This document shows positions 1,814-19,200 of a stretch of 64,000 nt of DNA, one piece after another. The position numbers were made by a program, and so were the translations under genes. The notes under the pieces were generated by a model. That model was not told the origin of the DNA and searched no databases. It saw nothing but the letters and a program-made list of their open reading frames with translations. Position 1 is the first letter of the stretch. The number at the start of each line of letters is the position of its first letter. The stretch is taken from positions 4,149-68,148 of the forward strand of contig JAZQBL010000039.1 of assembly GCA_045545665.1 (NCBI GenBank), read 5' to 3'. Source of the DNA: Eubacteriales bacterium (lineage in GTDB: Bacteria; Bacillota; Clostridia; Oscillospirales; CAG-272).

Positions 1814-1915
1814 TTTGTATATTCCTTTCTTTTACCCCCCAAAAGGAGTATTATTCCCTGTATACAATATTAACATAAAAATCTTATATTGTCAAGAGAA
1901 AAACAGCAAAAGTGC

Positions 1916-3523: not shown

Positions 3524-3757
3524 TTACATTACCTCCGTTTTTGTTTAATTATTCCCAAGATCATTATATCATACAGAACAGCTCATGTAAAGTAAATTAT
3601 TCTTTACATTTTTTATTTTTGACATTAACATATCCAAAAGATAGGGTCTACTCATATCCTTTGGAAAATAATAAGCATCGCAGAATGCTTCGATATCATT
3701 TGGCAATGCTCTTGCAATATACTGAATTTTGGAAAGCGTAGTTGTTCGTATCGTGTA

Positions 3758-3886
3758 GCGTTGCGTTTGTCTGCTCAAGCACAGGTCTATCAGAAAAATT
3801 CCCGAAATTTTTAAGAGCTTGGAGCATCCCAACGGGCACCGCTTTTCGAACTTAGGAAGTAAAAGCAGTCTTCGCTGACGTAACGC
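3758..3886. repeat. copy 1 of a conserved ~70-nt element with self-complementary flanks
   Basis: Core 3763-3833 aligns at roughly 75% with 14007-14078. Flanking arms GCGTTGCG (3758-3765) and CGTAACGC (3879-3886) can pair. Nature unresolved. Confidence 0.4.
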
Positions 3887-4042
3887 AGACTTTTTTCGAG
3901 ATGAACCATTTTATCCGCTCCTTCTGTTTCAGCAGGTGAGATTTGCAGGAGATTCTCGCACTGAATTTAAATAATGACTTGATTTGAGCAAGCATGATTC
4001 TTTGGCAAACGCTATATCTGTATAAATGCTACTCTATATTTA

Positions 4043-4237
4043 TTAGGTGTACTTTATATGTAACCATTTATCATCGAATAAACTTTTTGCCAAACAGTCT
4101 TCGTGGCAAAACAAGTCTTGTGAAGGATTTTCAGTCGCTTCATCTTGATTGGATTTTTGTACAGTCAAAACATATTGCGGAAATTCCTTGATTTCCTTTC
4201 CACAAAAACAACAACATTTTTTCATCATCATTATCAC
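4043..4237 (-). CDS. small Cys-rich (zinc-ribbon-like) hypothetical protein
   Basis: 64-aa ORF with KKCCCFCGKEI ... FCHEDCL. Overlaps the upstream ORF by 98 nt. No strong RBS. Confidence 0.35.
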   Translation of the reverse strand: MIMMMKKCCCFCGKEIKEFPQYVLTVQKSNQDEATENPSQDLFCHEDCLAKSLFDDKWLHIKYT

Positions 4238-4385
4238 CCATAATTTTTCGCCAAATTTTCAAGCCTTGCTTTGTTACTTCTCTTATAAAAGTAATTATTT
4301 CACCGACATTATTTTCAACTGTAATATTGTATTTGCCATTATCAATGACTCGAATATAAACTTTCGCACCGCAGTAACACCGCAT
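4140..4385 (-). CDS. hypothetical small protein
   Basis: ORF 4140..4409 trimmed to the first ATG (MRCYCGAKVYIRVIDNGKYNITVENN...). Its 3' part overlaps the next ORF in another frame. Confidence 0.35.
   Translation of the reverse strand: MRCYCGAKVYIRVIDNGKYNITVENNVGEIITFIREVTKQGLKIWRKIMGDNDDEKMLLFLWKGNQGISAICFDCTKIQSR
4198..4383. repeat. direct repeat, intact copy (partner 7688-7862)
   Basis: By-eye alignment with 7688-7862: near-identical apart from scattered substitutions and an ~11-nt deletion in the partner. Confidence 0.75.
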
Positions 4386-4550
4386 TCCGGCTACAAACTG
4401 TATCAGCAAGTGTACCTGTTACGGACTATCCCTCAGTCTTTTGCTTTGCAAAATCCACCTTTCTTTACACAAGAGAGGATTTTTTGTCACTTCGCAATCT
4501 TTTCGTCTCCCGGTGATAAAACCGGGGTGATTTCCACGCCTTAAGGCGCC

Positions 4551-4584
4551 AAAAAACACAGTCGGAACTTTCGTCCGACTGTGT
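4551..4584 (-). terminator. Rho-independent terminator
   Basis: ACACAGTCGGA / TCCGACTGTGT stem followed on the minus strand by TTTTTT, 10 nt after the stop at 4594. Confidence 0.65.
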
Positions 4585-4593
4585 TAAAATTAT

Positions 4594-6882
4594 TTATTTC
4601 GAAGAAGGTATTTCGTACTCAATAATGAGTTCAAACTTCGTCTTTTTCTTTGCAGAATATATTGCAACTTCATCGTCGCTAACTTTCTGTATGTAAATGG
4701 TATTATTTACAAACGCAGAAGCGATTCCAACATCATCTGCAACCTTCTGCTTTTCCTTGCCGTTACGGCTGGAATAGAGTGTACCTGTTTCGTCATCGGC
4801 AACATCAGCTATGAAGAGGAGGTAATCGTCATGCGTCATAGTCATTCTTTCAGCATCGTCTGCTATCTTCTTGGGTTCACCCGTTTTCTTTACGTAGCGG
4901 AGTGTTTCATCTTCGTCGATGAAATAGCATTTTTCGCCATCTGACGTAATTTCAAATGATGTAACATCACTTGCAATTTCAACGTATCCTTCTTCGCTGT
5001 AACCGTTTCCGCGATAAAGATCACCGGAATCGCTCAACGAGTAAACCTGAAGGAAATAAACAACTTCAGCAGTAGGTGTCGTTTCGAAACTGGATACATA
5101 ATTCTCTATCTTGTGTGTTTCGCATTTATCGTCGAGATAGTAAAGTGTGTGGTCTTCATTAGCTATGAAGTACTGTTCAAGTAAGCTTTCCATAGGCAAC
5201 GTCAAACAATTTGAACCACTTGATACTTCGGAGTTATACTTGTTGTATCCCATCTTATCGATTCTGATACCGTCCGAAGTTATCTTTACCTTTTCTCCGC
5301 CATCTTCGGAAAAATAAACGTCATTACCTTCGCCGAAAATCGCCTGCGTATGATCTGTATTGAGGCACATAGTAGGAAGATTGTTTACATCATTAAGGAT
5401 CTTAACTGATTCCTTTCCGTCCTTCTGTACGTAAACAGCCTTCTTTTCAACATTAAAATAGTAAGCAAGTTTTGCTTTGTTTGATATTGCAAGAGGTCTA
5501 AGTCCGTCACCGTCTTCATATTCTTCAGCCTTGCCGCCGGAATATGTAAACATTGTATATTCATGTTCGCCGTCTTTGATTTCACATTCAGCATAAGCTA
5601 CAGTCTTACCATCAGGAGATACACATATAGATTCAACCTTTTCATCCGTGATGGATTCTGCTTTTTCATCTTTGATAACGTAATGGAAAAGCTCTTGTTC
5701 TTCTCCGGCTTTATCAGTAACAACATAAACAAGTGCTGTACCCTCGGATGCGAGATATACATCTTCTATGTTATCTTCTTCAGCAACAGTAAGGAGCTTC
5801 TTGCCGGTATATACGTACAATACGTCCTCTTTTTCGCCGTCAACAACAAACGCTTTGGTTTTGCCGTTAATAGATGTTCTCTCAATAGAAGCTTCACCCT
5901 CTACAGTAGATTCTACAACCTTACCGTCAACAATAATCAATGTTTCTTCCTTATCGGGATCATACGACAGAAGTATAGACTTCTCGGGGATGACATATTT
6001 TGTTGCTTTGGGCCATGCGGCAATAACGATAATTATAAGAACGAGCAAAAGCAACGCGGCGCCCGCTATAATTCCGATACGCTTTATCAAAGCAGGATTT
6101 TCCTTTACAAAGCTGCTTGCTTTGTTTGCAGTATTTGAAAAGAAATCTTTAACTTTAGTAAAATCAATGTTTGTTGCAGCGCCGTCTTCGTCATCGTTGT
6201 TTGCTGCGGCCGCTACAGTTGCTGCTGTTGCCGCTGTTGCTGTCGCTGCAGCCCCTGCGTAGAAGGCAGCGTTATTCGCATCATCGTCGCTATATGCATC
6301 CATATTATTGTCAACTGCATAACCGTTGTTAGGCTGAACTGCGGGCTGGTTTTTAACCATAGGGCCAAACAATTTAAGAGCAACAAAAACAATTATAGGG
6401 AACAAAAGCATGATGTACATACCAAATCCGGGTCTTACACCAATTGTAATTCCCCACATTTTTTCGCGTACAACGATTAAAGTTATAAACGAAAAGATTG
6501 CAGCAAGAACATTGATGCCGATATAACTAAGTATTGCGATCGTTGAGATCTTGTTTATCAACTTAGTATTCAAAGCAGGGAGAACATTAGTACCTGCAGA
6601 TGTTGCTTTGAATGCGCCAAATAAGCCGAAAAGTATCATAAGGATACTCAACACAAGGAGAATAATAACAAGGACCGATGTAAATGCGAGAGTAAAAGAT
6701 GAAGAGTCTGAAAGGTCACTGGCAGCAGTCATAAACTTGTACCCGTTGACACCCTCTGACATCTTTTCACTCCCATAGCTCGCATAAGCAACCGCATAGT
6801 TGAAACACATGAGAATGAAGTTGAACACACCTATCACGAAACATGCAAGTGGGTTCAAAAGTTTTTTGAGATTGATTGACAT
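4594..6882 (-). CDS. multi-pass membrane protein with low-complexity Ala/Thr/Asn linker and extracytoplasmic beta-propeller-like (TolB/DUF5050-like) C-terminal region
   Basis: Start set to the ATG at 6882 (MSINLKKLL), preceded by GAAAGGAAA. Several hydrophobic helices in the first ~210 aa, then an AAATATAATAATVAAAANNDDEDG linker and another TM. Repeated SPDGK / DG..I.. strands follow. Confidence 0.7.
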   Translation of the reverse strand: MSINLKKLLNPLACFVIGVFNFILMCFNYAVAYASYGSEKMSEGVNGYKFMTAASDLSDSSSFTLAFTSVLVIILLVLSILMILFGLFGAFKATSAGTNVLPALNTKLINKISTIAILSYIGINVLAAIFSFITLIVVREKMWGITIGVRPGFGMYIMLLFPIIVFVALKLFGPMVKNQPAVQPNNGYAVDNNMDAYSDDDANNAAFYAGAAATATAATAATVAAAANNDDEDGAATNIDFTKVKDFFSNTANKASSFVKENPALIKRIGIIAGAALLLLVLIIIVIAAWPKATKYVIPEKSILLSYDPDKEETLIIVDGKVVESTVEGEASIERTSINGKTKAFVVDGEKEDVLYVYTGKKLLTVAEEDNIEDVYLASEGTALVYVVTDKAGEEQELFHYVIKDEKAESITDEKVESICVSPDGKTVAYAECEIKDGEHEYTMFTYSGGKAEEYEDGDGLRPLAISNKAKLAYYFNVEKKAVYVQKDGKESVKILNDVNNLPTMCLNTDHTQAIFGEGNDVYFSEDGGEKVKITSDGIRIDKMGYNKYNSEVSSGSNCLTLPMESLLEQYFIANEDHTLYYLDDKCETHKIENYVSSFETTPTAEVVYFLQVYSLSDSGDLYRGNGYSEEGYVEIASDVTSFEITSDGEKCYFIDEDETLRYVKKTGEPKKIADDAERMTMTHDDYLLFIADVADDETGTLYSSRNGKEKQKVADDVGIASAFVNNTIYIQKVSDDEVAIYSAKKKTKFELIIEYEIPSSK

Positions 6883-6972
6883 GACGTTTTCCTTTCTTTC
6901 AGTAAAAATAAAAATGAATAATAATGAACGAAGGTCAACACTTTTATTGTGCAAAAACCTACATTTTTTTGC

Positions 6973-7001
6973 ATTATAACACACCTTTCTTTTAATGTCA
7001 A
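6973..7001 (-). promoter_or_regulatory. consensus sigma-70-type promoter
   Basis: Minus strand TTGACA (7001-6996), 17-nt spacer, TATAAT (6978-6973), ~90 nt upstream of the 6882 start. Confidence 0.6.
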
Positions 7002-7127
7002 CAATTAATTAACTTTTTCTTGAGTAATTTTAATATTTTTCTACTTTTTTCGAACATATCTTTTAAATCTTTTTATTCTCTTTTGCATACAGTAATGTTT
7101 CTACAAATTGATTTCTCGTCTTCTTTC

Positions 7128-7165
7128 GAAATAAACAAGCCGATCTTAAAAAGTCAAGATCGGCT
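7128..7165 (-). terminator. Rho-independent terminator
   Basis: 10-bp stem AGCCGATCTT / AAGATCGGCT, followed on the minus strand by a T-rich run, downstream of the 7241 stop. Confidence 0.55.
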
Positions 7166-7240
7166 GCCCGGAAATGGTTTATGGCAAAAAAGCAACAAAC
7201 ATTCAGTGTAGAGCGAAAACTTAAAACATACAAAAACAGC

Positions 7241-7609
7241 TTATTTTTTCAAAAGCCATGAAACAATTGAAAAAATAACAAAATCGACCAGAACTAAACA
7301 AATATGGAACATCACCAAAATTCCAATAATATTTGCAGAATAATTTGCGAAAAAACAAATAATCGAATTCACAGGACCAAGAAATGCAAAAAACAGAGAT
7401 AGTATAAGTTCAAAGTAATAATACCGAGGGATCTTTCGTTTTTTAAGATGAAATACAGTCCTTACCCATCTTGCGGGAATAACATATCCTTTAGGATAAC
7501 GTGATGAATTAGTCCTGATCCTTTCTATCATTCCTATCGCTGAATTCTTGCAACACATACTTGACAAAAAAGAAAGTCCCAGAAACATAAATGTACATTC
7601 AACGTCCAT
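7241..7609 (-). CDS. hypothetical membrane protein
   Basis: 122-aa ORF with three or four hydrophobic segments. No recognisable motif. Confidence 0.5.
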   Translation of the reverse strand: MDVECTFMFLGLSFLSSMCCKNSAIGMIERIRTNSSRYPKGYVIPARWVRTVFHLKKRKIPRYYYFELILSLFFAFLGPVNSIICFFANYSANIIGILVMFHICLVLVDFVIFSIVSWLLKK

Positions 7610-7687
7610 ATTTAAACCTCATTGAATTTCCACGAGCTCGGGCGGGCACTCAAAAAACATTATAGCAGCTACGCCATAATGTTGATT

Positions 7688-7862
7688 TTCCACAAAACAA
7701 CAACATTTTTTCATCATCATTATCACCAATAATTTTTCGCCAAATTTTCAAACCTTGCTTTGTTACTTTCTTCATAAAAATAATTATTTCACCGACATTG
7801 CTTTCATGTATTTGCCATTGTTAATGGCTCGAATATAAACTTTAGCGCCGCAGTACCACCGC
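7688..7862 (-). pseudogene. degenerate partial copy of the 4140-4385 / 4237 small-gene pair
   Basis: Aligns with 4198-4383. An ~11-nt deletion puts the RWYCGAKVYIRAINNGKY frame into an early stop. Only the first ~10 codons of the Cys-rich ORF are retained. Confidence 0.6.
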
Positions 7863-7917
7863 CTTGCATTGATTTAATACAATTTCGTCTTTTTCTATTC
7901 AATTCACGGTTTTTATG

Positions 7918-8751
7918 CTAACCATTCATCTGTTCTCTTCTCTTTGCGCCATTGGATATTAATAATTCCGTCAGTTGGTCCACTTGTTCCTGTGCTGATC
8001 CGTTAGGATTGGATATTGCAAAATCCAACGCAGTCCATCCACCCTTTGCCGGTTCATTCACCTTTACTTTTTGATTCAATAAAAGAGCAGTAATTTCGAC
8101 GCTTCCAACAACTACCGCACAATGAAGTGCAGTATTTTGATAAATATCTTTAACATTTACATCTGCTCCTAATTCAACTATTCTTTTAACCAGTTCAAAA
8201 CGATTGGCGATACAAGCGTGAATCAAAGAGGTTCTGCCATCGTGACCACACATATCAACACACGGGAGCTTCATAACCATTTCAATAATTTCCGTATCTG
8301 TATATGCTGTTCCCTCGCTTGAAGCCTTCATCATATCTGAAATCGTATCGATTTCATTTCGAGGCTTGGCATCAATCTGTTTCTTTCTGAACTTAGTGAT
8401 ACTACCGCTAATATCAAATTCACAAATCATTGATTTCTTGGGAATATTACGTGCAATAGAAACCAAAGTATCAATTGCTTTTTCACCATGAATATTCGCA
8501 TGCAAGCAAATAAAACCGGCACATAATCTTGTCTTGGGATCGTCATCCTCTAACCATTTCAGCAACAAATCAGAGTAGAGTGATGGATCGGCAATCACTC
8601 GATCCGTCAAACCTCCCAATGCTGTCACTGCGCGGTTATGTCTGCCTGCAGAACCTTTTTCGAGAGTATCTTTCGAATACAAATTATACCTTGATGAATG
8701 CAGCAAAAACGATTTTTTAAATCTATCTAATTTTTTCTCCGAATCATTCAT
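7918..8751 (-). CDS. ankyrin-repeat protein with helical N-terminal region
   Basis: Ankyrin repeats GRTSLIHACIANRFELVKRIVELGADVN, NTALHCAVVVGSVEITALLLNQKVKVN, GWTALDFAI. A TATAAT at 8812-8807 lies on the first ORF codons, so the start was moved to MNDSEKK (8751) behind GGAAGAG. Confidence 0.75.
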   Translation of the reverse strand: MNDSEKKLDRFKKSFLLHSSRYNLYSKDTLEKGSAGRHNRAVTALGGLTDRVIADPSLYSDLLLKWLEDDDPKTRLCAGFICLHANIHGEKAIDTLVSIARNIPKKSMICEFDISGSITKFRKKQIDAKPRNEIDTISDMMKASSEGTAYTDTEIIEMVMKLPCVDMCGHDGRTSLIHACIANRFELVKRIVELGADVNVKDIYQNTALHCAVVVGSVEITALLLNQKVKVNEPAKGGWTALDFAISNPNGSAQEQVDQLTELLISNGAKRREQMNG

Positions 8752-9049
8752 ATTTTTCTCTTCCAACATTATGTATATTTTTAATAAAAACATAATTTGC
8801 GTTACCATTATAGCACAGTTTTTTTAAGCTGTCAACATTTCCATTTTATGTCAAAAACAATTACACCCGTTGCGAATCTGCCGCAAATCCTATCGTTATC
8901 CGCCGAACATAAACAAAGCTGCGCTGATAGTTAAATGCGACCGATAAAGAAGCATCACTCATATCAGAAGCTTCGATTTAAACCGGTGCAAAGTTTTGAA
9001 CAGATCTCAATTTTTGAAAAATATTTCTCGGTTTATTTTTCAAAACGTA

Positions 9050-9078
9050 TTGAAATTCCCTTCCGAAAGCGATATAAT
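9050..9078 (+). promoter_or_regulatory. sigma-70-type promoter of pyk
   Basis: TTGAAA (9050-9055), 17-nt spacer, TATAAT (9073-9078). Confidence 0.55.
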
Positions 9079-9107
9079 ATTTTATGTATAAACTTCGGAG
9101 GGAATAT

Positions 9108-10520
9108 ATGAGGAAAACAAAAATCATTTGTACGATAGGTCCGTCCAGTTCAGACGAAAAAACAATCACACAAATGTGCAAAGCGGGTATGAATGTTGCG
9201 CGTTTGAACTTCTCCCACGGCACTCACGCAGACCACAAAGAGAAAATAGACCTTATCAAAAAAGTCCGTGAAAAGTTAGAATATCCCATTCCCATTATGC
9301 TTGACACAAAGGGACCCGAATACAGAATAAAGACCTTCCGAAACGGCAAGGTCGAGATCCCCACGGGAAGTACTTTTACCTTTACCACGGAAGACGTGGA
9401 GGGAGATGAAACAAAGGTCTCCGTCAATTACAAAGGGCTGATACACGATCTTGAGGTCGGTGACAAGATTTTAGTCAACAACGGTTTAGTTGTATTCGAA
9501 GTAAAAGAGCTGTGCGAAACCGTTGCCGTTTGTACGACTGTCGTCGGCGGTATTCTCAGTGACAGAAAAAGTATGTCGTTTCCGAACAAGGTAATGTCGG
9601 GACCTTATCTTTCCGAGCAGGACAAGGCTGATCTGCTGTTCGGCATCGAAAACGATATAGATTTTGTTGCGGCGTCGTTTGTATCAACTAAAGAAGACGC
9701 TCTGTCTGTCCGTGAATTTTTAAACGCAAACGGCGGTGCTTCCATAGACTTAATTGCAAAGATCGAAAACCGTGCGGGAGTTGACAACATTGAGGAAATA
9801 TGCGAAGCCTGCGAAGGTATTATGATAGCGCGGGGAGACCTCGGTGTTGAAATTCCTTTCGTAGAGGTTCCCTCTGTTCAGAAATATCTGATAAGCAAGT
9901 GCCGTATGCTCGGCAAACGTGTGATCACAGCCACGGAAATGCTGGAATCCATGATGCAGAATCCCCGCCCGACACGTGCGGAGATATCCGATGTTGCAAA
10001 CGCTGTGTACGACGGAAGCTCTGCGGTTATGCTTTCGGGAGAATCCGCTGCGGGAAAATATCCCGTTGCCGCAGTTGAGAGTATGGCTCAGATATGCGAA
10101 TATACAGAACAGCGTATTGACTATAAAAAGTGGTTCTCCACTTCCGAATTCCGTATCAAAAATAATCTTGATGCCATCTCACACGCGACGTGCGCTATGT
10201 CTATCGACGTAAACGCAAAAGGTATCGTCGTATGTTCCGTATCGGGTACTACCGCAAGAATGGTAAGCCGTTTTCGCAGTCCCGTTGACATCATCGGAAT
10301 GACAACGGATAAAAAAGCCTGGAGAAAGCTTGCACTCAGTTGGGGAATAACGCCTATGCTTTCCGAAAAATTCAACTCTATGTACGTCATGTTCTATAAG
10401 GCTATGGCGTGCGCAAGAATGGCTTTAAATCTCCACCCCGGTGACAACGTGGTATTGACGGGCGGAACTATAAACGGACAGTCGGGAAACACGAACACGA
10501 TCAAGGTAGAGCAGGCTTGA
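9108..10520 (+). CDS. pyk: pyruvate kinase
   Basis: MRKTKIICTIGPSS, NVARLNFSHG, MLDTKGPE, MIARGDLGVEIP motifs. Start set behind GGAGG. Confidence 0.95.
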   Translation: MRKTKIICTIGPSSSDEKTITQMCKAGMNVARLNFSHGTHADHKEKIDLIKKVREKLEYPIPIMLDTKGPEYRIKTFRNGKVEIPTGSTFTFTTEDVEGDETKVSVNYKGLIHDLEVGDKILVNNGLVVFEVKELCETVAVCTTVVGGILSDRKSMSFPNKVMSGPYLSEQDKADLLFGIENDIDFVAASFVSTKEDALSVREFLNANGGASIDLIAKIENRAGVDNIEEICEACEGIMIARGDLGVEIPFVEVPSVQKYLISKCRMLGKRVITATEMLESMMQNPRPTRAEISDVANAVYDGSSAVMLSGESAAGKYPVAAVESMAQICEYTEQRIDYKKWFSTSEFRIKNNLDAISHATCAMSIDVNAKGIVVCSVSGTTARMVSRFRSPVDIIGMTTDKKAWRKLALSWGITPMLSEKFNSMYVMFYKAMACARMALNLHPGDNVVLTGGTINGQSGNTNTIKVEQA

Positions 10521-10597
10521 TCCTGTAAAAATCTGCGCTTTCGATTCGTTGTATATAAAACTTTTTTCAATTTACTGCATTAGTTTTTAAAAAACTA

Positions 10598-10625
10598 TTG
10601 ATTTTTTATAAAAAAGTAGTATAAT
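10598..10625 (+). promoter_or_regulatory. candidate promoter of the antiporter gene
   Basis: TTGATT (10598-10603), 16-nt spacer, TATAAT (10620-10625). Confidence 0.4.
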
Positions 10626-10715
10626 ATTTTTTTGGCATTGAAAATACAGGGGGCAGTGTAAATTATGACAGCCTTACAATGCCTTAAATATCAATTTTGA
10701 AAGAAGGCGTATTTT

Positions 10716-12011
10716 ATGAACCAGACGGCAAGTATTTTTATGAGCCTCTCGATAGCTTTGCTTTCCGGACTTTTATTGTCAAGAGTTGCAAAAAAAGTAA
10801 AGCTCCCTGCGGTTACAGCATATCTTGTAGCCGGCGTTCTCATCGGCCCGTTCATTCTCGGTTCTTTGAACATTCCGGGAATAGGAATTACAACAGAACA
10901 GATCGAAGGATTCGGTATTATTTCGGATCTCGCTCTCGGATTTATCGCTTTTGCTATGGGTAACGAATTCCGTCTTGCCCAGCTTAAAGAGATCGGCAAG
11001 CAGGCTACCGTTATCGGAGTTTTACAGGCACTGTTCACGACTGTTGTTGTGGATGCGGTGCTGATCGGTTTGCACTTTCTTATGCCCGATAAGCTGTCTT
11101 TATCCGCCGCTATTGTTTTAGGCTCCGTTGCAACGGCTACCGCACCTGCGGCAACCTTGATGGTCGTTAAGCAGTATAAGGCAAAAGGACCCGTAACCGA
11201 TATACTTCTTCCCGTTGTTGCTTTGGATGACGCGGTCGGTCTTGTGGTATTTGCTGTTTCCTTCGGTATTGCAAAATCCATAAGTCTCGGAAAGGTTGAC
11301 GTACTTTCAGTTATTCTCGAGCCTTTACTCGAGGTCGTTCTCTCTCTCGGTCTCGGTTTTATTTCGGGACTTCTCTTCACTCTTTGTGAAAGATATTTCC
11401 ATTCACGTTCAAAAAGAATGGCTGTGTCGGTTACGTTCGTTATGATGACGGTTGCCGTATCGTGCCTTAAATTTGATATCGGCGGTATTCACATCGGTTT
11501 TTCTTCCTTGCTTGCTTGTATGATGCTCGGAACTGTATTCTGCAATATGTGCGAGGTATCGGAAGAGCTTATGGACAGAGCCGACAGGTGGACGACACCT
11601 ATTCTAATTCTCTTCTTCGTTATCAGCGGCGCCGAGCTTGAGCTTTCGGTATTTGCCGATTGGGCTGTTGTCGTAGTAGGTATCGTTTACATAATCTCAC
11701 GTTCGTTTGGTAAGTACTTCGGCGCTAACATCAGTGCAAAAATGATGAAATGCGATCCCAACATCGTTAAATATCTCGGCATTACGCTTTTACCTCAGGC
11801 GGGCGTTGCACTCGGTATGGCTATTAAAGCAATCGAGCTCGGACCTGACGGTGCTGTTGTAAGAAATATTACGTTGTTTGCGGTTCTGATATACGAGATC
11901 GTCGGTCCGTACCTGACGAAGATTGCACTTACGAAAGCAGGAGACATCAAAGAAGAAGGACGCACGAGCGCAAGAGAAGAACATCTTGCAAAAAAATCGC
12001 TGAATAAATAA
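10716..12011 (+). CDS. cation:proton antiporter (Na+/H+ exchanger family)
   Basis: 431 aa, about 11-12 TM segments. N-terminus LLLSRVAKKVKLPAVTAYLVAGVLIGP is typical of CPA-type exchangers. Confidence 0.85.
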   Translation: MNQTASIFMSLSIALLSGLLLSRVAKKVKLPAVTAYLVAGVLIGPFILGSLNIPGIGITTEQIEGFGIISDLALGFIAFAMGNEFRLAQLKEIGKQATVIGVLQALFTTVVVDAVLIGLHFLMPDKLSLSAAIVLGSVATATAPAATLMVVKQYKAKGPVTDILLPVVALDDAVGLVVFAVSFGIAKSISLGKVDVLSVILEPLLEVVLSLGLGFISGLLFTLCERYFHSRSKRMAVSVTFVMMTVAVSCLKFDIGGIHIGFSSLLACMMLGTVFCNMCEVSEELMDRADRWTTPILILFFVISGAELELSVFADWAVVVVGIVYIISRSFGKYFGANISAKMMKCDPNIVKYLGITLLPQAGVALGMAIKAIELGPDGAVVRNITLFAVLIYEIVGPYLTKIALTKAGDIKEEGRTSAREEHLAKKSLNK

Positions 12012-12028
12012 GCTGAACAAATAAAATA

Positions 12029-12070
12029 AAAGATACTCTTTTACTTTCAAAGTACAGAGTATCTTTTTAT
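12029..12070. terminator. bidirectional hairpin between convergent genes
   Basis: AAAGATACTCT / AGAGTATCTTT stem with T-run on the + strand. Confidence 0.5.
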
Positions 12071-12465
12071 TTGCTGCGTGTTTCGGATCTTACCACTTTT
12101 GTACCGAAGGTCTTTTCTTCCCAATAAACCAGCTCGGAAAAATATATCTTATCTATGCAAAGACCCTTTAAAAAATAATAGTATCCAACGGAATACATCA
12201 AAAACGCACGTTTGACAAGAATTTTAAAATTGGGAAGACTTCCATCTTTGTTACAAATAACAAGTCCCACGATCTTTTTTCCTATACTTGCATTTCTGAA
12301 TACAATGTCTTTGAAAAAGAGTGGTGTCAAGAATAAAAAGTAAATAAAGAAATTGAGTTCAAAACCAAATTTTATAAAAATATTTTGAAAAATGTAAAAG
12401 AAAACTGCTACAACAAAATCATCTATAAAAGATGCAATTGAACGTTTTACTAAGATCGGCATCAA
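12067..12465 (-). CDS. RDD-family-like small membrane protein
   Basis: 132 aa. KRSIASFIDDFVV N-terminus followed by TM helices and GKKIVGL resembles the RDD domain. Assignment is tentative. Confidence 0.5.
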   Translation of the reverse strand: MMPILVKRSIASFIDDFVVAVFFYIFQNIFIKFGFELNFFIYFLFLTPLFFKDIVFRNASIGKKIVGLVICNKDGSLPNFKILVKRAFLMYSVGYYYFLKGLCIDKIYFSELVYWEEKTFGTKVVRSETRSK

Positions 12466-12578
12466 TAAAACATCCTTTCAAAAATATTTTCTGACCGTAA
12501 TTTTACGAAAGATACGTACATCAAACATCAAAAAGCTTCAACGCCATAATTAGGATAACAAAAATACATTTTATTAAA

Positions 12579-12968
12579 TCACGGTGCTGACAATAAGAAC
12601 CTTGGAGGCTTTCCGCTTTCCTCCTCACCTTGATAATACCCTATTCCTTTTCCGCAATAAATAATGCATATTTCTCCCGTCTGCGCTTTATTTACAGCCT
12701 CTTTCAATGGCAAAACGCCGATATAACTTTCTCCAACAAAATAAACATTTTCAGCTTCACTCAATTGCAGGAGATAATTCCTCATTTTATCACCCGACAT
12801 ATAAGCAATCGGTTGTAAGCATTCTTTTTTGAAATACTTAGGTCCGGCGAAATGCCAAAAAACGGTATTTCTTTTTTCGGAATTATTCAGTTCCCATATG
12901 AATCTGTCCTGTTTTTCCTTCACTATATATTTTCGTATTATTTCTTCTTCAAATTTATAATTTTCCAT
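12579..12968 (-). CDS. hypothetical cytoplasmic protein (possible orphan immunity protein)
   Basis: Start set to MENYKFEEE behind AGGAAG. Overlaps the stop region of the upstream ORF by 14 nt. No recognisable motif. Confidence 0.5.
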   Translation of the reverse strand: MENYKFEEEIIRKYIVKEKQDRFIWELNNSEKRNTVFWHFAGPKYFKKECLQPIAYMSGDKMRNYLLQLSEAENVYFVGESYIGVLPLKEAVNKAQTGEICIIYCGKGIGYYQGEEESGKPPRFLLSAP

Positions 12969-13395
12969 ACTTATACTTCCTGCTGTACAGCAAAACAGTC
13001 TTTGTGTCGCCATTATTTTCGTCTTCTTTTTTTAACCCAACAACATCATATACCAGCAAAGTAATTGCAGTGTCACACAATAAAACAATAAATACCAAAA
13101 AGAACACTACCCACAAGCTGATATATTCTTCGTCCAATTCTGTCTTCTCTGTTTCAATATCGTAATATACCGCAGAATCACTCCTGAGATCTACAATACA
13201 TTTTTCATCAAACAAACGGTCTCTTATAGTTCTGTCATCTACCACTTTTGCTTTCACCGACGTAACGTTTTCCGATAAAAGATCATTTACTATATGCTGT
13301 TCATAATCATACCATAGGTTAAAATTTTTGTCAGCAAAGCACAAAAGAGATTTTTTCACAAAAAGAGACGTCGCTTTTTTAATCAAGTATGTCAT
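12955..13395 (-). CDS. hypothetical protein with C-terminal TM helix
   Basis: 146-aa ORF with hydrophobic segment YISLWVVFFLVFIVLLC. No clear RBS. Confidence 0.4.
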   Translation of the reverse strand: MTYLIKKATSLFVKKSLLCFADKNFNLWYDYEQHIVNDLLSENVTSVKAKVVDDRTIRDRLFDEKCIVDLRSDSAVYYDIETEKTELDEEYISLWVVFFLVFIVLLCDTAITLLVYDVVGLKKEDENNGDTKTVLLYSRKYKYGKL

Positions 13396-13514
13396 TAAAA
13401 AATATCGCCGATGGGGAGCCGCTTCATAAAGAAATGTTCTTCCTGCTTCCTTTTTATATAAAAACTAACACTTTCGGTTTGAAAGCGTTATAGTGGGTTA
13501 CATACTTTTTATTT

Positions 13515-13580
13515 CTTGATATGAATTGCGGCGGAAAAATTCTTTGTCGATCTCATTTATAACACACGTTTTTTAATGCT
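13515..13580 (-). repeat. ectopic 66-nt copy of the 3' end of the TIGR01212 radical SAM gene
   Basis: Aligns with 47563-47629 (2 mismatches, 1 indel). Translates on the minus strand as ..CVINEIDKEFFRRNSYQ, as in the gene at 47540-48508. Confidence 0.85.
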
Positions 13581-13597
13581 TTTTCTTGCGAATTTCT

Positions 13598-13829
13598 TTA
13601 CTCTATAATGATATTCCAAAACTCTCCGCCTCGGTCAACTCTTACAACAGGGTTGTTATCACAGCAAGCAAAAAGATTTTTTTATGTCATTCCCACAGGT
13701 AGCAGTTAAGACGTCTGTTGTATCAGATGAGATAAACCGACCGATCTTAGGATCATAATAACGGCTAGATATATAGTCCGTATCATTATCGCAGTAATAT
13801 CCACGATAACGATCATAATATACAAAGTG
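13598..13829 (-). pseudogene. frameshifted, truncated RHS-core C-terminal fragment
   Basis: Minus-strand frame HFVYYDRYRGYYCDNDTDYISSRYYDPKIGRFISSDTTDVLTATCGNDIKK runs into a stop. After an A7 run the +1 frame reads NLFACCDNNPVVRVDRGGEFWNIIIE-stop (RHS core-end motif). Confidence 0.7.
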
Positions 13830-13910
13830 TTACAACAGTTTAGCCATATTGAACTTAACAACGCCTTTGCGAGAAAACGGTTAGGGGAAACCGATTAACT
13901 AAACCGTTTT
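13736..13910 (-). repeat. 175-bp direct repeat, copy 1 (RHS core-end homology block)
   Basis: 7 mismatches against 15345-15519 by manual alignment. Confidence 0.85.
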
Positions 13911-13994
13911 CTTATCAAAGGCAATTTTGTAACCGCCAAGTTAAAACTTTTTCAAATCACCTACTACAAGGGAAATGAGAGTGCGCTATACCAG

Positions 13995-14115
13995 CCAGCA
14001 AGCATCGCGTTTGGTCACCCAAACACAGACTTGTCAGGAATATTCCTGAAACCTTTAAGTGCTTGGGATTACCCCAACAAACGGCCTTTTGTCCCCAAAA
14101 GGCGATGCTTGCCGG
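13995..14115. repeat. copy 2 of the conserved ~70-nt element with self-complementary flanks
   Basis: Core 14007-14078 is similar to 3763-3833. The 14-nt arms CCAGCAAGCATCGC (13995-14008) and GCGATGCTTGCCGG (14102-14115) are complementary at 13/14. Internal hairpins at 14034-14049, 14062-14076 and 14082-14099. Confidence 0.4.
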
Positions 14116-14140
14116 TATTATGTCCATATCTCAATCTTAA

Positions 14141-14689
14141 TTAATCGCTGGTAAATATTCCACAAAAATATTGTTCTACTGCTGACTGATGTGGAAAATA
14201 AATAGCAATCTTTTTTTTACATTTCTTTAGTGCTTCCTTATATTTTCGCTTACTCCCATTATCAGCCAAGTACAGGATTTCCGCTAGTTCGTTGTTGGGA
14301 TCGTTAGAATAAGCTTCGGAAATCAGATCGTTGCCTGCCTTCTCTACTTCCCTAATATCAGTGCTTACATACGGAAAATCCATTTGGTTTATACACATAA
14401 AATAACCAAATAACCACAAGCAATCAGAATCAGTCCAACATCTTTCTTTTGCAAGTGTATACGCTTTTTCAAGACCTAGCTCGAACACATTTCTATTCAA
14501 TTTATCCTTCGGCATATTACAATGCCAAAATGTTAAAACATACCAACTCTGTGCTGCAAGCCGATATAAAACTGTCTTGTTTTGAGATTGGGAATGCATC
14601 AGATTATTTAAGTACTCTATAGATTCACCCCATTGTTCCTGTTGCTCGTATTTAACTAAAATATCATCGTCATACAATATTGCACTCAT
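14141..14689 (-). CDS. candidate immunity protein of the orphan RHS toxin cassette
   Basis: 182 aa. ATG overlaps the toxin stop (ATGA at 14686-14689). Acidic helical protein with no signal peptide. Confidence 0.6.
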   Translation of the reverse strand: MSAILYDDDILVKYEQQEQWGESIEYLNNLMHSQSQNKTVLYRLAAQSWYVLTFWHCNMPKDKLNRNVFELGLEKAYTLAKERCWTDSDCLWLFGYFMCINQMDFPYVSTDIREVEKAGNDLISEAYSNDPNNELAEILYLADNGSKRKYKEALKKCKKKIAIYFPHQSAVEQYFCGIFTSD

Positions 14690-15438
14690 CTTGTTTTCAC
14701 CCATGCATCCGAGATTCTAATTACGCCATCAATTACGGCATAGTGCACAATAATTTTCTGACCCATGTATAAATATACCGATTCATATATAATTGAAGTA
14801 ACTCCTTTTTTTACCATCTTATTAATTAAGGTTGTTGCACCTTTTTTCAATGCTTGAGATATAAGGTTTTTAACGCCGCTTTGTGTAACATTTTTCAGCA
14901 CAAGATTCCATGCATGCTCTTTGGTAATAATGTGTCCCCATGTTTTTTGAGAAATACTAGATAGTGCTTTATATATAGCTTTTAGTTTAACCCCACTTGT
15001 GGATGTAGCTCCACAAAGGAAACCTACTCCATAACCTACAAAACCGCCAATTCCACCTCCGACAACAGACCCTCCAAGGCCATAGCCGACAACATATTTC
15101 CAGCGATCTTGTTTAGCTACATTATTTTTAACGGCTTTTTTATATCCGTATACTCCTCCAGCAGTTCCTCCAATTAAAGCGCCAATTCCTATTCCAATTA
15201 ACACTGCTGTCGATATTACGAATTCGCCAGTTGGGTCAATATTATTTACTGGATTGTTAGCACAATAAGCATATACATTATACCCTATTAACCCTGCACC
15301 CTCATCAAACTCGCCATTATACACATTGGATTCAGGGATAATCCACCGACCGATCTCAGGATCGTAATAACGGCTAGATATATAGTCCGTATCATTATCG
15401 CAGTAATATCCACGATAACGATCATAATATACAAAGTG
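14686..15438 (-). CDS. start-less orphan cassette: RHS-core C-terminal end plus variable toxin domain
   Basis: The open frame begins directly after a TAA with no ATG or RBS. It reads HFVYYDRYRGYYCDNDTDYISSRYYDPEIGRWIIPESNVYNGEFDEGAGLIGYNVYAYCANNPVNNIDPTGEF. A Gly-zipper hydrophobic segment follows, then a ~105-aa domain (..TWGHIITKEHAWN..VIRISDAWVKTR). Confidence 0.65.
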   Translation of the reverse strand, partial: HFVYYDRYRGYYCDNDTDYISSRYYDPEIGRWIIPESNVYNGEFDEGAGLIGYNVYAYCANNPVNNIDPTGEFVISTAVLIGIGIGALIGGTAGGVYGYKKAVKNNVAKQDRWKYVVGYGLGGSVVGGGIGGFVGYGVGFLCGATSTSGVKLKAIYKALSSISQKTWGHIITKEHAWNLVLKNVTQSGVKNLISQALKKGATTLINKMVKKGVTSIIYESVYLYMGQKIIVHYAVIDGVIRISDAWVKTR

Positions 15439-15519
15439 TTACAACAGTTTAGCCATATTGAACTTAACGACGCGTTTGTGAGAAAACGGTTAGGGGAAAC
15501 CAATTAACTAAACCGTTTT
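15345..15519 (-). repeat. 175-bp direct repeat, copy 2
   Basis: Partner of 13736-13910. Covers ~95 nt of RHS coding sequence plus ~80 nt upstream of the in-frame stop. Confidence 0.85.
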
Positions 15520-15638
15520 ATCTCTTCAAACTATTTTCTATTGTTTGCAATGCAAAATAAACTTAATAAATATCAATATCTTATTCTTAAATTATTCTGA
15601 ATTTTGATACTATTCTCACTACCGATATCATTATGTTT

Positions 15639-16028
15639 TTACACTTGTATTCCGAAAAAATTATTATTTTTTGAGAGATGTATTTTTAAAACCTTTGAAA
15701 GTACATTTAATTCTCTCTTCTGACTCCACAGAAAAAACGGGCGTTCAAATATCCAAATTTTTCTTTCTTTTTCCCAGATATCCGGTTCTATTGTGCAGAC
15801 GTTAATTGGTCGTTCGCTCAACTTTTTCAATTCTGTGCTAAACTGCGAAGAACAGCAATAACTTATTCCTCTTTGAACCTCATCGTAAATCGTAAAACAA
15901 CCGCTGTCATTATAAAAGCTATGTGTTACCACTGTCCAACTTCCATAACAATGGTAAAAAATTTGGCTTTTATATAAAAGATTATAATCTTTTATGAGAA
16001 AATCAAAAATTTCTTCTATTTTTTTCAT
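15639..16028 (-). CDS. hypothetical cytoplasmic protein (immunity-like)
   Basis: 129 aa with a good RBS (GAGGAG, 7-nt spacing). Preceded by a 57-codon start-less open frame (16042-16212). Confidence 0.5.
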   Translation of the reverse strand: MKKIEEIFDFLIKDYNLLYKSQIFYHCYGSWTVVTHSFYNDSGCFTIYDEVQRGISYCCSSQFSTELKKLSERPINVCTIEPDIWEKERKIWIFERPFFLWSQKRELNVLSKVLKIHLSKNNNFFGIQV

Positions 16029-16250
16029 AACAGACTCCTCATCCCAAAAAATGAACTGCTAATTTCCAAAAATTGCGTGTTTTCCAAATACCAACAGTTA
16101 CTTTTTCCATGGCATACCATGCTCCTTTTGTAATAATATCTGTTGGCAGTCCAACATCGATTGTTGTGCTGCTTTCCCATAGGAGTTTCTTTCGCTTTTT
16201 TCTTAAATTATATCAAAAATTTGTGAATTTTTCAATGGTTAGATGCGTTG

Positions 16251-16282
16251 CAAGGCGGTGGCGAATCATCGCCACCGCCTTG
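16251..16282 (-). terminator. GC-rich hairpin after the adhesin gene
   Basis: 13-bp stem CAAGGCGGTGGCG / CGCCACCGCCTTG, 9 nt after the stop. No clear U tract on the minus strand. Confidence 0.4.
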
Positions 16283-16291
16283 CATTCATAA

Positions 16292-19200
16292 TTAGTTGTT
16301 AGCTACATTTCTTCTCTTTCTGTCGTAGACGGTCAGAGTGATTACTGCACCGCCGCTGATAAACATCAAAACGAACCACATTTCCAGATTGGAGTTGTCT
16401 CCGGTCTGAGGATTGTCGGGGACGGAAGGTGTGTAATCGTAGGTATTCTCAAACGCTGCAACCGGCTCTGCCGTTTCTGCTTCATTCATCGTCACAGTTG
16501 CGACGAGGGTGTTGGTTTCCTCATTCAGCGCAATGGTGATGGTGATCGCATATTCGGCGGTGCTGTAGGTTATGTTTGCCTTGCCGCTGTTGACCTCAGT
16601 CAGCTTGTAGGAGAAGGTCTTACCGATATCGTCCTCAGTAAAGGTCAGGGTGAACTTCGCCTTGCCGTTTTCATCGGATATCTCGGTGATGCCCTCCGCA
16701 CCGTCTGCCGGAGCTTCCAACAGGAACTCAAAGCCTCCGGGTCCGATCTTTTCGCTGCCCTTGTTCACGACCGTCTTGACGATGTCAATATCCACGGTAA
16801 TGTCTGCGGGCTTGGGAGTATAGACATTGTTGAAGGCGATGGTGTCGACTGCATCGTCGCTGCCTTTCTTTACGATTATGGGGTCGCCTGCTACCAGCTT
16901 GCCGTTTTCGTCGTCAGTCACTTCGATGGTCACATAGTAGACCATTTCGTCGAAGGTCACGCGCTCAGCTACCACACTGTCGTCCTCGTAAACTACGAAG
17001 AAGTAAATACCGGGTTCGGTGAAGGAAACTGCGTCGAAAGAGAAACCGCCGTCTGCGCCGTTAAGTGCGTACATCGGGGTTGCGTCCTCAATGATGTTGA
17101 AGACTTCGTTTGCTTCAATCATCACGAACTTGAATTCGCCCTCGTTCAGATCTCTGCCGGTGAGTTCCTTGCTACCGACGATATTCACGTTTGTAGAGGT
17201 TACGCTGTAGTCGTTGACAAATGCGATGTCCTGTGCCACCTCGGAGGTCTCACCCTTCACCTTCACCATAGTGGTGCCGGTTATAACCAACTGACCCTTA
17301 CCGTTATCCAAAACGGTTACAGTAATGTGGTACCGGGTATTGTCGTATACCACGCCGCCAATAGGGTTCTGGCTATTTTCCTTGACGATGAAGTTGTGGG
17401 TTCCGGCTGTGTCAAGAGGAATGCCTGCGAATACGAAGTTGCCGTTCTCATCATTCTTCACGGACTGAATCGCTGCACCGTCGATCTCAAAGTTTTCGTT
17501 TGCCTTGTAGAGATCGAAGGTAAAATCATTTGCCTTCAGCTCACGGTTGCCGCTGATCAGATTCAGTGTCTTGCTACCCTCAAAGTCGATGACAGTAGAA
17601 GCAGAATCGTAATCGTTGGTGAAGTTCAGGGCATTAATTGCGCTGTCTGCAACTGTTGCGGTTGCGTCCACAGCACCGTTTCCGTCGTCGGTAACAGTCA
17701 CGGTAACCTTGTACTCGATATTGCTGTAGGTGACACCTTCAATGGTCTTACCGGCGTTCTTTTCCTTCAGCACGTAGTAGAAGGTCTCGCCTATATCATC
17801 CGGTACGTAGGTCATGTTGATCACAAAACCGGTTTCGGGATCTGCGGTTGTGGTTGCCACGGGAGTTGCGCCAAGGTTTTCGAAGTTCGCATCTGCCTCA
17901 TAGAGTTCGAATACGAACTCGTCATCCTCGTTCCACTCGCGTCCGTCAAGCGTCTTGGTGCCGGACAGCTCGATGGAATCGGTGCCGGTCACGTTGTAGA
18001 TGTTAGTGAATACAATTTTATTTACCAAAGAAACTTGCTGGCCATTCACCTTTGTAACAGAGTAGCTGCTGGACAATGTGCCATCCAGATTGTCGGTCAC
18101 CGTGACGTGGATACGGTAGACCGCACTGTCATTGGTAATGCCGTTGACAGTTCTGCCTGCGTCTGCCTCGGTGATCAGGTAGTAGTAATCGCCGGCTGCC
18201 ATGTACTCGATCTTATCGAATACGAAGGCGGTGCCATTGTTCTGCTTGGACTGGAGGATGTCGCCAAGCATCCAGTTTGCATCAGATTTGATGAGGTTGA
18301 AGGAGAACTTCAAGCTACCGAGAGTCCTGTTTTCCAGAGCCTTTGTGCCTTCAAACTGCACAGAAGCGCCTTCTTCGATAGCGTACTCATTGACGAAATT
18401 AAGCGTAGAGGCGGTGGCATCTACAATGGTAGTTACCGTCTCGATACCGCCGGTGCCGTTATCACGAACCTCAACCTTGATCTGATACGCAGCGCTGCTG
18501 TAGGTAAGTCCGTTCAGATTCGTGCCTGCACCCGTCTCTTTCACGACATAGTAGAAGGTCTTGCCCACATCTGATGCCGTGTAGCTCAGATCAAACTCAT
18601 ATCTATGAGTTGTGGAATCCATCGCAACGGTCGTCTTGGGAGTCTCGCCGATGTTGTAGTTCTCGTCGGCTTCGTAAAGCTCGAAGGAGAAGCTGTCGTC
18701 ATCCTTGAAATCACGTCCGTCGATAAACTTTTCACCGGACAGGGTCACAGATGCGCCGCCGGTAATTTCATAGACATTGACGAACAGGATCTTATCCTGC
18801 GGGATGCCTTCATCGTCATAGATGTGAATGGTGGCATGCAGCTGACCCTTCAGGTCATCGGTGATCTGGACCCACACGCGATACTCGGTATCGTCATAGG
18901 TCACACCGTCAATGGTCTGGCCGCCGTTCTTTTCCACTACGATAAAGTGCTGATCACCGACAGTATCAAAGTCGATCTTAGTAAAGGTGATCAAACCGCC
19001 CCTTGCGTTTTTAACGGTTTCTCTGGGCTGTCCAATCTTCTCCCAATCGGTATTGGAGTTGTAAAGTTCAAACTCATATTCGCCGCCGACGAGGTTATTG
19101 TCCACCTTTCCGGTGAGCTGCTTCTCGCCGTTAAACTGTGCCCATGTGGGATTTGCCTTGTAGTTATTCTCAAACACCAAGGTGTTGCCTGCACCGCTGA

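Follow-up and report, generated by a model that had tools for sequence, protein, structure and literature searches.

Organization of the locus

An array of orphan RHS toxin-tip/immunity cassettes lies on the minus strand between positions 12579 and 16212 of a 64,000-nucleotide (nt) stretch of DNA, here called the window, from a Eubacteriales bacterium (GenBank assembly GCA_045545665.1, contig JAZQBL010000039.1, positions 4,149 to 68,148). One cassette (B) is intact and two (A and C) are degraded, and none of them has an RHS shell, a secretion-related N terminus, or a start signal of its own. The locus is probably a decayed array of three such cassettes in a gut Oscillospiraceae-like bacterium; the pyruvate kinase encoded in the window is closest to proteins of Oscillospiraceae metagenome-assembled genomes. 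A preliminary description of this DNA had proposed orphan RHS C-terminal cassettes that lack a start and lie next to candidate immunity genes, and the present analysis supports that proposal. The comparisons below draw on 166 related loci (1.9 Mb, given L numbers), which were retrieved with the window's own core-end peptide, and on a sister strain (L167). The features of the array, listed from the side of the upstream gene and with open reading frame abbreviated as ORF, are as follows.

16207..16235, minus strand: sigma-70-like promoter candidate, TTGAAA-17-TGaTATAAT (11/12), a consensus match only, located just past the adhesin terminator hairpin and ahead of cassette A
16042..16212, minus strand: toxin C-terminal stump of cassette A, its last ~37 to 57 codons; homology from ~16158, with 46% identity over 37 amino acids (E = 2.7e-8) to an RHS-cassette toxin end at 2404-2514 of L059
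15639..16028, minus strand: immunity-like ORF of cassette A, 129 amino acids; GAGGAG Shine-Dalgarno sequence, ATG overlapping the stop of a short upstream ORF (ATGA), L059 homologue at 2553-2897
15439..15519, minus strand: noncoding part of repeat copy 2; hairpin-2 (AAAACGGTT...AACCGTTTT), degenerate leader, then ATG, four codons, and TAA; aligns with L004, L011, L055, and L077
15217..15438, minus strand: RHS core end of cassette B, RYRGYY...DPTGEF; coding part of the repeat and att-like site with a 6-nt deletion; TIGR03696
14686..15216, minus strand: toxin C-terminal region of cassette B; two glycine-zipper/transmembrane-like segments, then an Ntox35-like (BECR-fold RNase) domain
14141..14704, minus strand: candidate immunity gene of cassette B, 182/187 amino acids; probable start at ATG 14689, with an ATGA overlap with the toxin stop
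13995..14118, no strand assigned: structured element of ~125 nt; 16-nt terminal inverted repeats and four internal hairpins, ~23 nt past the immunity stop
13911..13994, minus strand: semiconserved "type A" flank of the ~125-nt element, 84 nt, ending in CGGTTACAAAATTGCCTTT
13830..13910, minus strand: noncoding part of repeat copy 1; hairpin-2 (scored as terminator-like), leader, and MAKLL* mini-ORF
13601..13829, minus strand: broken RHS core end of cassette C; 6-nt deletion (att-like site), 2-nt deletion near 13700, homology ending at GGEFW (13615), toxin lost
13451..13507, minus strand: terminator-like hairpin TAACGCTTTCAAACCGAAAGTGTTA plus T-run within a ~55-nt stretch that is 40- to 60-fold overrepresented in gut metagenome contigs
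12955..13395, minus strand: ORF of 146 amino acids with a hydrophobic stretch, possible orphan immunity gene; no family match and no homologue in the loci
12579..13013, minus strand: ORF of 144 amino acids, possible orphan immunity gene; no family match and one weak match (22% identity), in L066
12177, no strand assigned: left limit of the hypervariable array, where synteny with the sister strain ends, inside an RDD-like ORF (12067-12465)

Upstream of the array lies, as had been proposed, an adhesin gene with a sorting signal; its 2608-amino-acid pilin-type product contains 11 Spy0128-like isopeptide domains, one VWA domain, and, at the C terminus, an NPQTG motif and then a hydrophobic tail. 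The G+C content is 0.29 to 0.41 over 12001-16000 and 0.47 to 0.53 in the adhesin gene, in agreement with the AT richness noted earlier for the region. There is no rhs gene upstream of the array, nor anywhere in the 64 kb, because 10 full-length RHS proteins of related genomes align with the window only at the two core ends. Neither the YD-repeat shell nor the N-terminal trafficking region of a full-length RHS/YD toxin was found in the window.

Among the small ORFs that had been put forward as orphan immunity genes, the one at 15639-16028 gained support, since an RHS cassette in L059 is followed first by a homologue of the cassette A stump and then by one of this ORF. The ORFs at 12955-13395 and 12579-13013 have no such support, and their assignment as immunity genes is a guess.

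The ~55-nt stretch at 13451-13507 reached a depth of 200 to 370, compared with 3 to 9 for its neighbors, in four gut metagenomes and was absent from all 167 fetched loci. A match to the Listeria RNA family rli61 (Rfam) at 16202-16287 was discarded; it scored 36 bits against a cut-off of 50 and corresponds to the GC-rich adhesin terminator hairpin.

A direct repeat carries two RHS core ends

The 175-nt direct repeat that first drew attention to this region was located at exactly the positions reported, 13736-13910 and 15345-15519. The two copies are ~97% identical to each other and differ, upon recounting, at six positions rather than at the seven given before. An exact core of 62 nt is present twice in the window and was never recovered from 100 shuffles. 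Directly after a TAA, each copy encodes on the minus strand the end of an RHS core, HFVYYDRYRGYYCDNDTDYISSRYYDP(E/K)IGR(W/F). In copy 2, the frame continues through NVYAYCANNPVNNIDPTGEF and is open for 250 codons (15438-14689). Hidden Markov model searches with TIGR03696 (RHS repeat-associated core; cut-off, 32.5 bits) bore out the assignment for copy 2 (47.9 bits, E = 1.4e-12) and left copy 1 below the threshold, its frame at 13829-13662 giving a partial match of 28.9 bits. Copy 1 is indeed frameshifted and truncated; it resumes in another frame as KNLFACCDNNPVVRVDRGGEFW and meets a stop five codons on. Neither repeat frame contains an ATG, and the first start-type codon of copy 2 is a GTG at 15324. 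Translational coupling of the ORF downstream of copy 2 was confirmed as well, its ATG (14689-14687) overlapping the TGA of the toxin frame (14688-14686).

The repeat contains a hairpin and a degenerate leader

On its upstream side, the repeat extends 81 nt past the in-frame stop, close to the ~80 nt first estimated. The preliminary description had taken the repeat as shared core-end homology, and this interpretation did not hold for its first ~80 nt, which consist of a diverged noncoding hairpin and leader that are also seen before non-RHS ORFs. At many related loci, a flank with CGGTTACAAAATTGCCTTT at its end follows the ~125-nt element; behind it come a second hairpin (GGAAACAGTTGGAGGG...CCTCTAACTGTTAC) and then a 65-amino-acid ORF (MRKVKLIVHETYQGKRK...) whose ATG is preceded by a Shine-Dalgarno sequence. 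The upstream part of both window copies aligns with this hairpin/leader unit, with the Shine-Dalgarno sequence degraded; the hairpin itself is kept by compensatory changes (AAACGGTT/AACCGTTT versus AAACAGTT/AACTGTTA), and the window leader holds a mini-ORF reading ATG-GCT-AAA-CTG-TTG-TAA. In L004, L011, L055, and L077, the hairpin/leader precedes the 65-amino-acid ORF and a serine recombinase, or other orphans. In L077, L032, and L079, the hairpin stands directly before variously truncated RHS fragments, and other leader copies cut the 65-amino-acid ORF at differing codons. Since the leader recurs across cassettes and loci, the repeat is a composite cassette boundary and not extended RHS homology: a structured hairpin, a degenerate leader with a five-codon mini-ORF, and an RHS core end that begins at RYRGYY.

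Readthrough of the in-frame TAA by an altered genetic code was also considered and was rejected, as neighboring genes stop at TAA; the mini-ORF is a gene-start remnant.

The array differs in a sister strain

The sister strain, whose pyruvate kinase is 99% identical to that of the window, matches window positions 1 to 12177 at 98.0%, with the divergence beginning within the RDD-like ORF. The array that it carries at this locus (13100-19596 of L167) is wholly different. First comes an RHS ORF of at least 381 amino acids that is cut by the end of the contig; YD repeats occupy 125 codons ahead of its core end, and an immunity gene accompanies it. This pair is followed by a ~125-nt element and then by a displaced orphan of the ETGLYY type with its partner. 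Next come a leader, MAKLL*, and HFVYYDRYRGYYCDNDTGPYYISSRYYD..., which opens an intact 240-codon cassette that is the counterpart of window cassette C. Compared with this counterpart, cassette C has the 6-nt deletion at the att-like site and the 2-nt deletion near 13700 and has lost everything past GGEFW. Three further leader copies stand before non-RHS ORFs, bringing the number in L167 to four. Given the RHS ORF that leads the array of the sister strain, the absence of an rhs gene is specific to the window strain, and the adhesin neighbor looks like a strain-specific rearrangement. The comparison thus indicates that the array turns over between 98%-identical strains and that the block is a repeated cassette boundary of the species.

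It is extremely unlikely that an assembly or binning artifact joined an RHS array to the adhesin gene. Contigs of four metagenomes do cover the array and its left flank and not the adhesin, with X2 and X6 diverging at 16204, as an artifact would predict; strain variation explains this divergence equally well. Moreover, the sister-strain contig gives independent confirmation of the left flank, of where the array locus begins, and of the leader blocks, and the junction at 16204-16290 is an ordinary terminator hairpin followed by the promoter-like site.

Orphan arrays are the norm in related gut Clostridia

The 250-amino-acid frame of cassette B had 521 database relatives; the best 120 of these 521 were all short (145 to 435 amino acids), and none was a full RHS protein. 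In 167 sequences we counted 320 distinct core ends, of which 33 had at least 1,000 codons of open frame upstream and thus belong to full-length genes, 56 were cut by a contig end, and 231 were orphans. Many orphans are arrayed behind a full-length gene: the open frames upstream of successive core ends measure 1311, 379, 169, 67, 241, and 9 codons in L055, and in L062 the upstream open frames measure 1861, 9, 93, 75, and 117 codons. Arrays with no full-length gene in view were present in L001, L012, and L017. Named sources of the loci are Oscillospiraceae, Faecousia, Acutalibacteraceae, Lachnospiraceae, and Blautia. Orphan arrays are the norm in this clade of gut Clostridia.

L005 contains, at 2105-3367, a PT-HINT fragment (229 amino acids) followed by a 187-amino-acid ORF in an array shared with RHS orphans, which indicates that arrays of the clade mix cassettes of different polymorphic-toxin scaffolds.

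Look-ups of identical proteins for the 129-amino-acid ORF, the immunity gene, and the Na/H exchanger yielded none. In back-translated searches, the best core-end matches were 78% (one genome per species) and 84% (metagenome contigs), and the HFVYYD start of the block together with its leader was found in no full-length rhs gene of the genome or metagenome collections. This result bears on the possibility that the array is a silent reservoir, in which a full-length rhs gene elsewhere in the genome would share the block and homologous recombination would move a stored toxin/immunity pair into the expressed gene. Two blocks with 97% identity would be ideal recombination substrates, a 37-nt stretch (AGCCGTTATTACGATCCTGAGATCGGTCGGTGGATTA) is shared without a mismatch with the tips of many rhs genes, and activation of orphans by recombination has been documented in Salmonella (PMC3967940); the recurrence of the block in the sister strain with other array content also indicates that exchange at the blocks does happen. 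However, besides the absence of the block start and leader from the full-length rhs genes of those collections, no rhs gene is present in the 64 kb, half of the block is a noncoding leader that would break the rhs frame, and a toxin could now come from just one of the three cassettes. We therefore regard a reservoir as rather unlikely. The label, which the preliminary description had used, is doubtful also in view of the 6-nt deletion in the att-like site of both copies: with two of three cassettes broken and the att-like sites deleted, "relic plus immunity island" fits better.

A structured element of ~125 nt follows the immunity genes

The element behind the immunity gene of cassette B is highly conserved. 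By blastn against the loci, 13995-14123 is 93 to 100% identical in many genera, on either strand, compared with ~75 to 85% for flanking coding DNA, and the ends are sharp (TACCAGCAAGCATCGC...GCGATGCTTGCTGGTA). Two of its four hairpins carry GNRA-type loops (GGGA and GUGA), and its predicted minimum free energy is -59.6 kcal/mol (z = -5.4). In a 32-sequence alignment, a five-helix model paired 90.6% of pair cells, compared with 32 to 49% in slid-partner controls; RNAalifold, applied to a MAFFT alignment, gave a consensus that was incomplete and unlike this model, and its covariation term was close to nil. Variants have one or three hairpins, or swapped stems in which GTTTGG/CCAAAC becomes CAATGG/CCATTG. 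Rfam 15 gave nothing at E <= 1 over 13995-14118 and no family for the element or the leader over 12000-16400.

A profile search of the 1.9 Mb recovered 150 full or partial copies. Nearly two-thirds of them (98/150) lie 759 to 1,779 nt past a core-end start, that is, just behind an immunity gene; others stand behind small ORFs, in arrays spaced 0.5 to 1 kb. This fixed position speaks against random transposition of the element and disfavors an IS630-type miniature inverted-repeat transposable element, an idea that had come from its TA-flanked terminal inverted repeats. Metagenome depth over the element is 10- to 40-fold that of its neighbors.

A short motif, CAGGGGACGGTTCT, often in tandem, abuts truncated copies of the element, e.g., at ~12690 in L041, ~2045 in L051, ~1610 in L036, and ~1560 in L044. 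The window itself holds a decayed second copy at 3748-3881 (36 bits, E = 4.5e-6), behind a small Cys-rich ORF. The AT-rich islet around it (~3500-9000) also encodes an ankyrin-repeat protein (7918-8808) and contains a direct repeat of ~180 nt (4205-4386 and 7694-7865; 88 to 92% identity). On the minus strand this repeat encodes ...CGAKVYIR(V/A)I(D/N)NGKY...VTKQGLKIWRKI.GDNDDEKMLLF, and its copies overlap the start of a small MKKCCCF... ORF; it may represent a second, non-RHS orphan toxin-end/immunity module.

The toxin and immunity pair of cassette B

The C-terminal region of the cassette B toxin matches Ntox35 (PF15534) with 21.3 bits (E = 4.5e-4), under the gathering cut-off of 23.6 bits; among 21 toxin homologues, 16 match this family, the best with an E value of 3.5e-10. 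Ntox35 domains, which occur on RHS proteins, are predicted to be RNases of the BECR fold in which an H and a KH are conserved (PMC3482391). In the motif GHIITKEHAW (14860-14880), the conserved H is present and the KH dyad is replaced by an EH preceded by K. EH in place of KH is also found in P0001, and other relatives have KKH or SKH. The candidate immunity protein had no match in family scans. Toxin and partner are co-conserved in L001 to L007, with amino acid identities of 66 to 89% and 80 to 93%, respectively.

The ratio of nonsynonymous to synonymous substitution rates (dN/dS) was 0.22 to 0.31 for the toxin and 0.17 to 0.21 for the immunity gene in comparison with distant copies. Relative to the nearest copy, in L005, which is likewise an orphan, it was ~1.6 for the toxin (10 nonsynonymous and 2 synonymous changes) and 0.63 for the immunity gene (14 and 5, respectively); the close pair suggests a recent relaxation, although the counts are small. 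In two bovine-gut metatranscriptomes, contigs ~99% identical to the immunity gene cover 14099-14467; weaker contigs cover 14631-14923 of the toxin, and nothing specific covered the core end.

These data bear on two further explanations. In one, cassette B would be an autonomous toxin-antitoxin-like module, its toxin being translated from GTG 15324 or by reinitiation after the MAKLL mini-ORF. A 212-amino-acid ORF does extend from this GTG, metatranscriptome contigs cover part of the toxin, and a precedent has been reported for a Salmonella orphan rhs (PMC7043789). Yet the GTG lacks a Shine-Dalgarno sequence, homologues start at many truncation points with no conserved start, and RNA depth is lower over the toxin than over the immunity gene, all of which makes an autonomous module very unlikely.

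In the other, the array would be pseudogene debris left after rhs loss, devoid of present function and awaiting deletion. In favor of such decay are the truncation of cassette A, the frameshifted and toxin-less cassette C, the deleted att-like site in both copies, the toxin dN/dS of ~1.6 relative to the nearest relative, and the K-to-E change in the toxin motif. We nevertheless consider debris quite unlikely: the 250-codon frame of cassette B and its 187-amino-acid partner are intact and under purifying selection across the family, the immunity gene is present in metatranscriptomes, and the 129-amino-acid ORF of cassette A has a good Shine-Dalgarno sequence and a promoter-like site.

Relatives carry cassettes with a large serine recombinase

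In L004/L091, L011, L061, L063, L076, and L160, the 65-amino-acid ORF is followed by a large serine recombinase of 538 amino acids, with the Pfam architecture Resolvase, Recombinase, Zn_ribbon_recom, and DUF4368; the copy in L047 has an internal deletion. The recombinases are 87 to 95% identical to each other, and five unrelated toxin cargos occur between core end and element. The whole unit of ~3.1 kb (5012-8360 in L004 and 10001-13160 in L011) opens with a replacement RHS core end, which a variable toxin and an immunity gene follow; next come the ~125-nt element and the hairpin/leader, and last the 65-amino-acid ORF and the TnpX-like recombinase. The unit sits at GAGAC within rhs core ends, and the old tip is displaced just downstream.

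Both junctions of these units could be delimited by comparison. At the left junction, the sequence is host variable up to GA(G/A)ACNGGN and then continues as (C/T)TCTAYTATGTATCCAGCCGTTATTAYGATCCTGAGATCGGTCGGTGG, which shows hardly any variation at synonymous sites across scores of core ends of different genera. The right junction lies ~90 nt past the recombinase stop, where an invariant ...GCCGGGTACATATATAAGTCCAGCC gives way to GAGAC and to a variable, host-type core end, ETG(L/F)YYLNSRYYDP. When joined, the unit ends read GGGTACATATATAAGTCC-AGCCGAGACG-GGACTCTACTATGTATCC, with 18-nt imperfect inverted arms (13/18 matching) around a 10-nt spacer, from which we infer the format of a serine-integrase attP. 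An attP-like junction occurs naturally at position 2765 of L052, and the circle junction of the recombinase unit is predicted to read ...GGGTACATATATAAGTCCAGCC-GAGAC-GGGACTCTACTATGTATCC.... Tn4451-type serine integrases recombine at 2-bp identities without an accessory factor (PMC5704250).

Many cassettes have a similar right end, a CCGGAGGG hairpin and then GGGTACATAACAGAACCCAGCC abutting GAGAC, and no recombinase. The constant ends and the ~125-nt element are 10- to 40-fold more abundant in metagenomes than the recombinase gene. L009 and L011 have only cargo and element in common (1,139 nt, 95.9%), inside unrelated rhs genes. The 64-kb window contains no recombinase, and its att-like site has the 6-nt deletion in both repeat copies. 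Plasmid and phage collections yielded no near match to the 3.2-kb recombinase unit, and literature searches returned nothing linking serine recombinases to RHS or polymorphic toxins.

Homologous exchange alone, to which the preliminary description had pointed, does not account for the origin of the orphans, in that relatives show discrete cassettes inserted at one fixed core-end site, some of them with a large serine recombinase.

Proposed history of the array

We favor, with moderate confidence, descent of the array from cassette insertions into an rhs gene that has since been lost, what remains being mainly an immunity island. Cassettes would have been added one after another, by site-specific insertion at the 3' end of an rhs gene, through a recombinase working in cis or in trans. 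Each insertion, at the E-T codons of the ETGLYY motif, would have supplied a new in-frame tip and displaced the old one. The window strain would later have lost the rhs body, the recombinase, and a working att site. In the remnant, expressed immunity genes may protect against neighbors with matching toxins, and the toxin frames would stay silent unless rejoined to an rhs gene.

A broader statement, on gut Clostridia (Oscillospiraceae, Lachnospiraceae, and relatives) as a group, seems to us about evenly balanced between true and false. They would possess an integron-like RHS system with cassettes of 1.2 to 3 kb, each made up of a core end, a toxin, an immunity gene, and the ~125-nt element; a TnpX-like recombinase, encoded on some of them, would insert them into any rhs gene at the E-T codons of its ETGLYY motif, in trans for cassettes devoid of a recombinase, near-identical cassettes would thus spread across genera, and the window would hold a relic of this system.

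Several points weigh against this account of the array. The mechanism is read from relatives, and the window has neither a recombinase nor an rhs body. The window cassettes start 13 codons upstream of the inferred crossover, behind a leader remnant, which indicates that this junction arose by later deletion or duplication and not by direct crossover. The att model is built on comparative junctions only, and the metagenome contigs offered a single weak joint skipping 3115 nt (22-nt side, depth 3.2) and no circular form. Retrieval by core-end peptide skews the set of loci toward the cassette type of the window. As to the element, its near-palindromic sequence means that an RNA role (as a terminator, stabilizer, or processing site) is inseparable from a DNA role, and only five of its pairs change on both sides, a modest compensatory support. 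The KH-to-EH change may have impaired the cassette B toxin, and the metatranscriptome contigs could stem from other strains or from contaminating DNA.

The usual explanation for orphan cassettes is homologous recombination with the main gene. Should the pattern seen across the family hold, a site-specific recombinase would do the swapping in many gut anaerobes; this would explain the identical toxin/immunity pairs in unrelated rhs genes of different genera, the orphans that start at one fixed nucleotide, and the immunity islands that outlast the weapon. Two testable objects emerge, a compact recombinase with a ~46-bp target in a conserved coding motif and an abundant ~125-nt element for which there is no Rfam family. 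For the window alone the meaning is modest: a strain-specific relic, most likely still protective through its immunity genes.

Comparison with known systems

The orphan rhs-CT/rhsI modules of Enterobacteria, e.g., those of Salmonella Typhimurium LT2 (PMC3967940), correspond to the "standalone toxin cassettes" of polymorphic toxin loci (PMC3482391). Like these, the window cassettes are 5' truncated, retain an RHS core end in front of a variable toxin, and have an immunity gene next to the toxin, often overlapping it; they likewise occur as arrays of several, have no start signals of their own, and vary between strains. Unlike the enterobacterial orphans, they have no full-length rhs gene adjacent to them, reside in a Gram-positive gut anaerobe, and are separated by two conserved noncoding modules, the ~125-nt element and the hairpin/leader. 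The relatives differ further in that orphans begin at one fixed nucleotide, beside recombinase-type ends, rather than at variable breakpoints of homologous recombination.

The recombinase-associated acquired interbacterial defense (rAID-1) clusters of Bacteroidales (bioRxiv 10.1101/471110) resemble the array in their orphan immunity genes and toxin fragments, skewed G+C content, repetitive intergenic sequence, link to a site-specific recombinase, integron-like look, and gut habitat. The recombinase of rAID-1 is, however, a XerD-family tyrosine recombinase, and the immunity concerns the type VI secretion system, whereas the recombinase here is a large serine recombinase, found in relatives only, the cassettes are RHS tips made to join onto a toxin gene, and the repeats are others.

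With Tn4451/TnpX elements (PMC5704250), the units in relatives share a recombinase with Resolvase, Recombinase, Zn ribbon, and DUF4368 domains, its terminal position in a small element with short identical sequences on either side, and an inferred dinucleotide crossover in sites of ~46 bp. They differ in cargo, a toxin/immunity pair instead of resistance or mobilization genes, and in the many copies without a recombinase; their intragenic target would be retipped in frame and not disrupted.

As in integron cassettes with attC, the cassettes are promoterless, have an imperfect inverted-repeat element right after the ORF, share one orientation, and mostly lack a recombinase. The ~125-nt element, in contrast to attC, is conserved in sequence (93 to 100% across genera), and the inferred crossover lies at the opposite cassette end, inside the coding sequence of the RHS core end. 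There is no attI, and no tyrosine integrase gene (IntI) was found in the array by ORF listing and family scans of the array frames. Measured against these systems, the content of the window is an ordinary orphan array, and the build and movement of the cassettes in relatives appear to be an undescribed variant.

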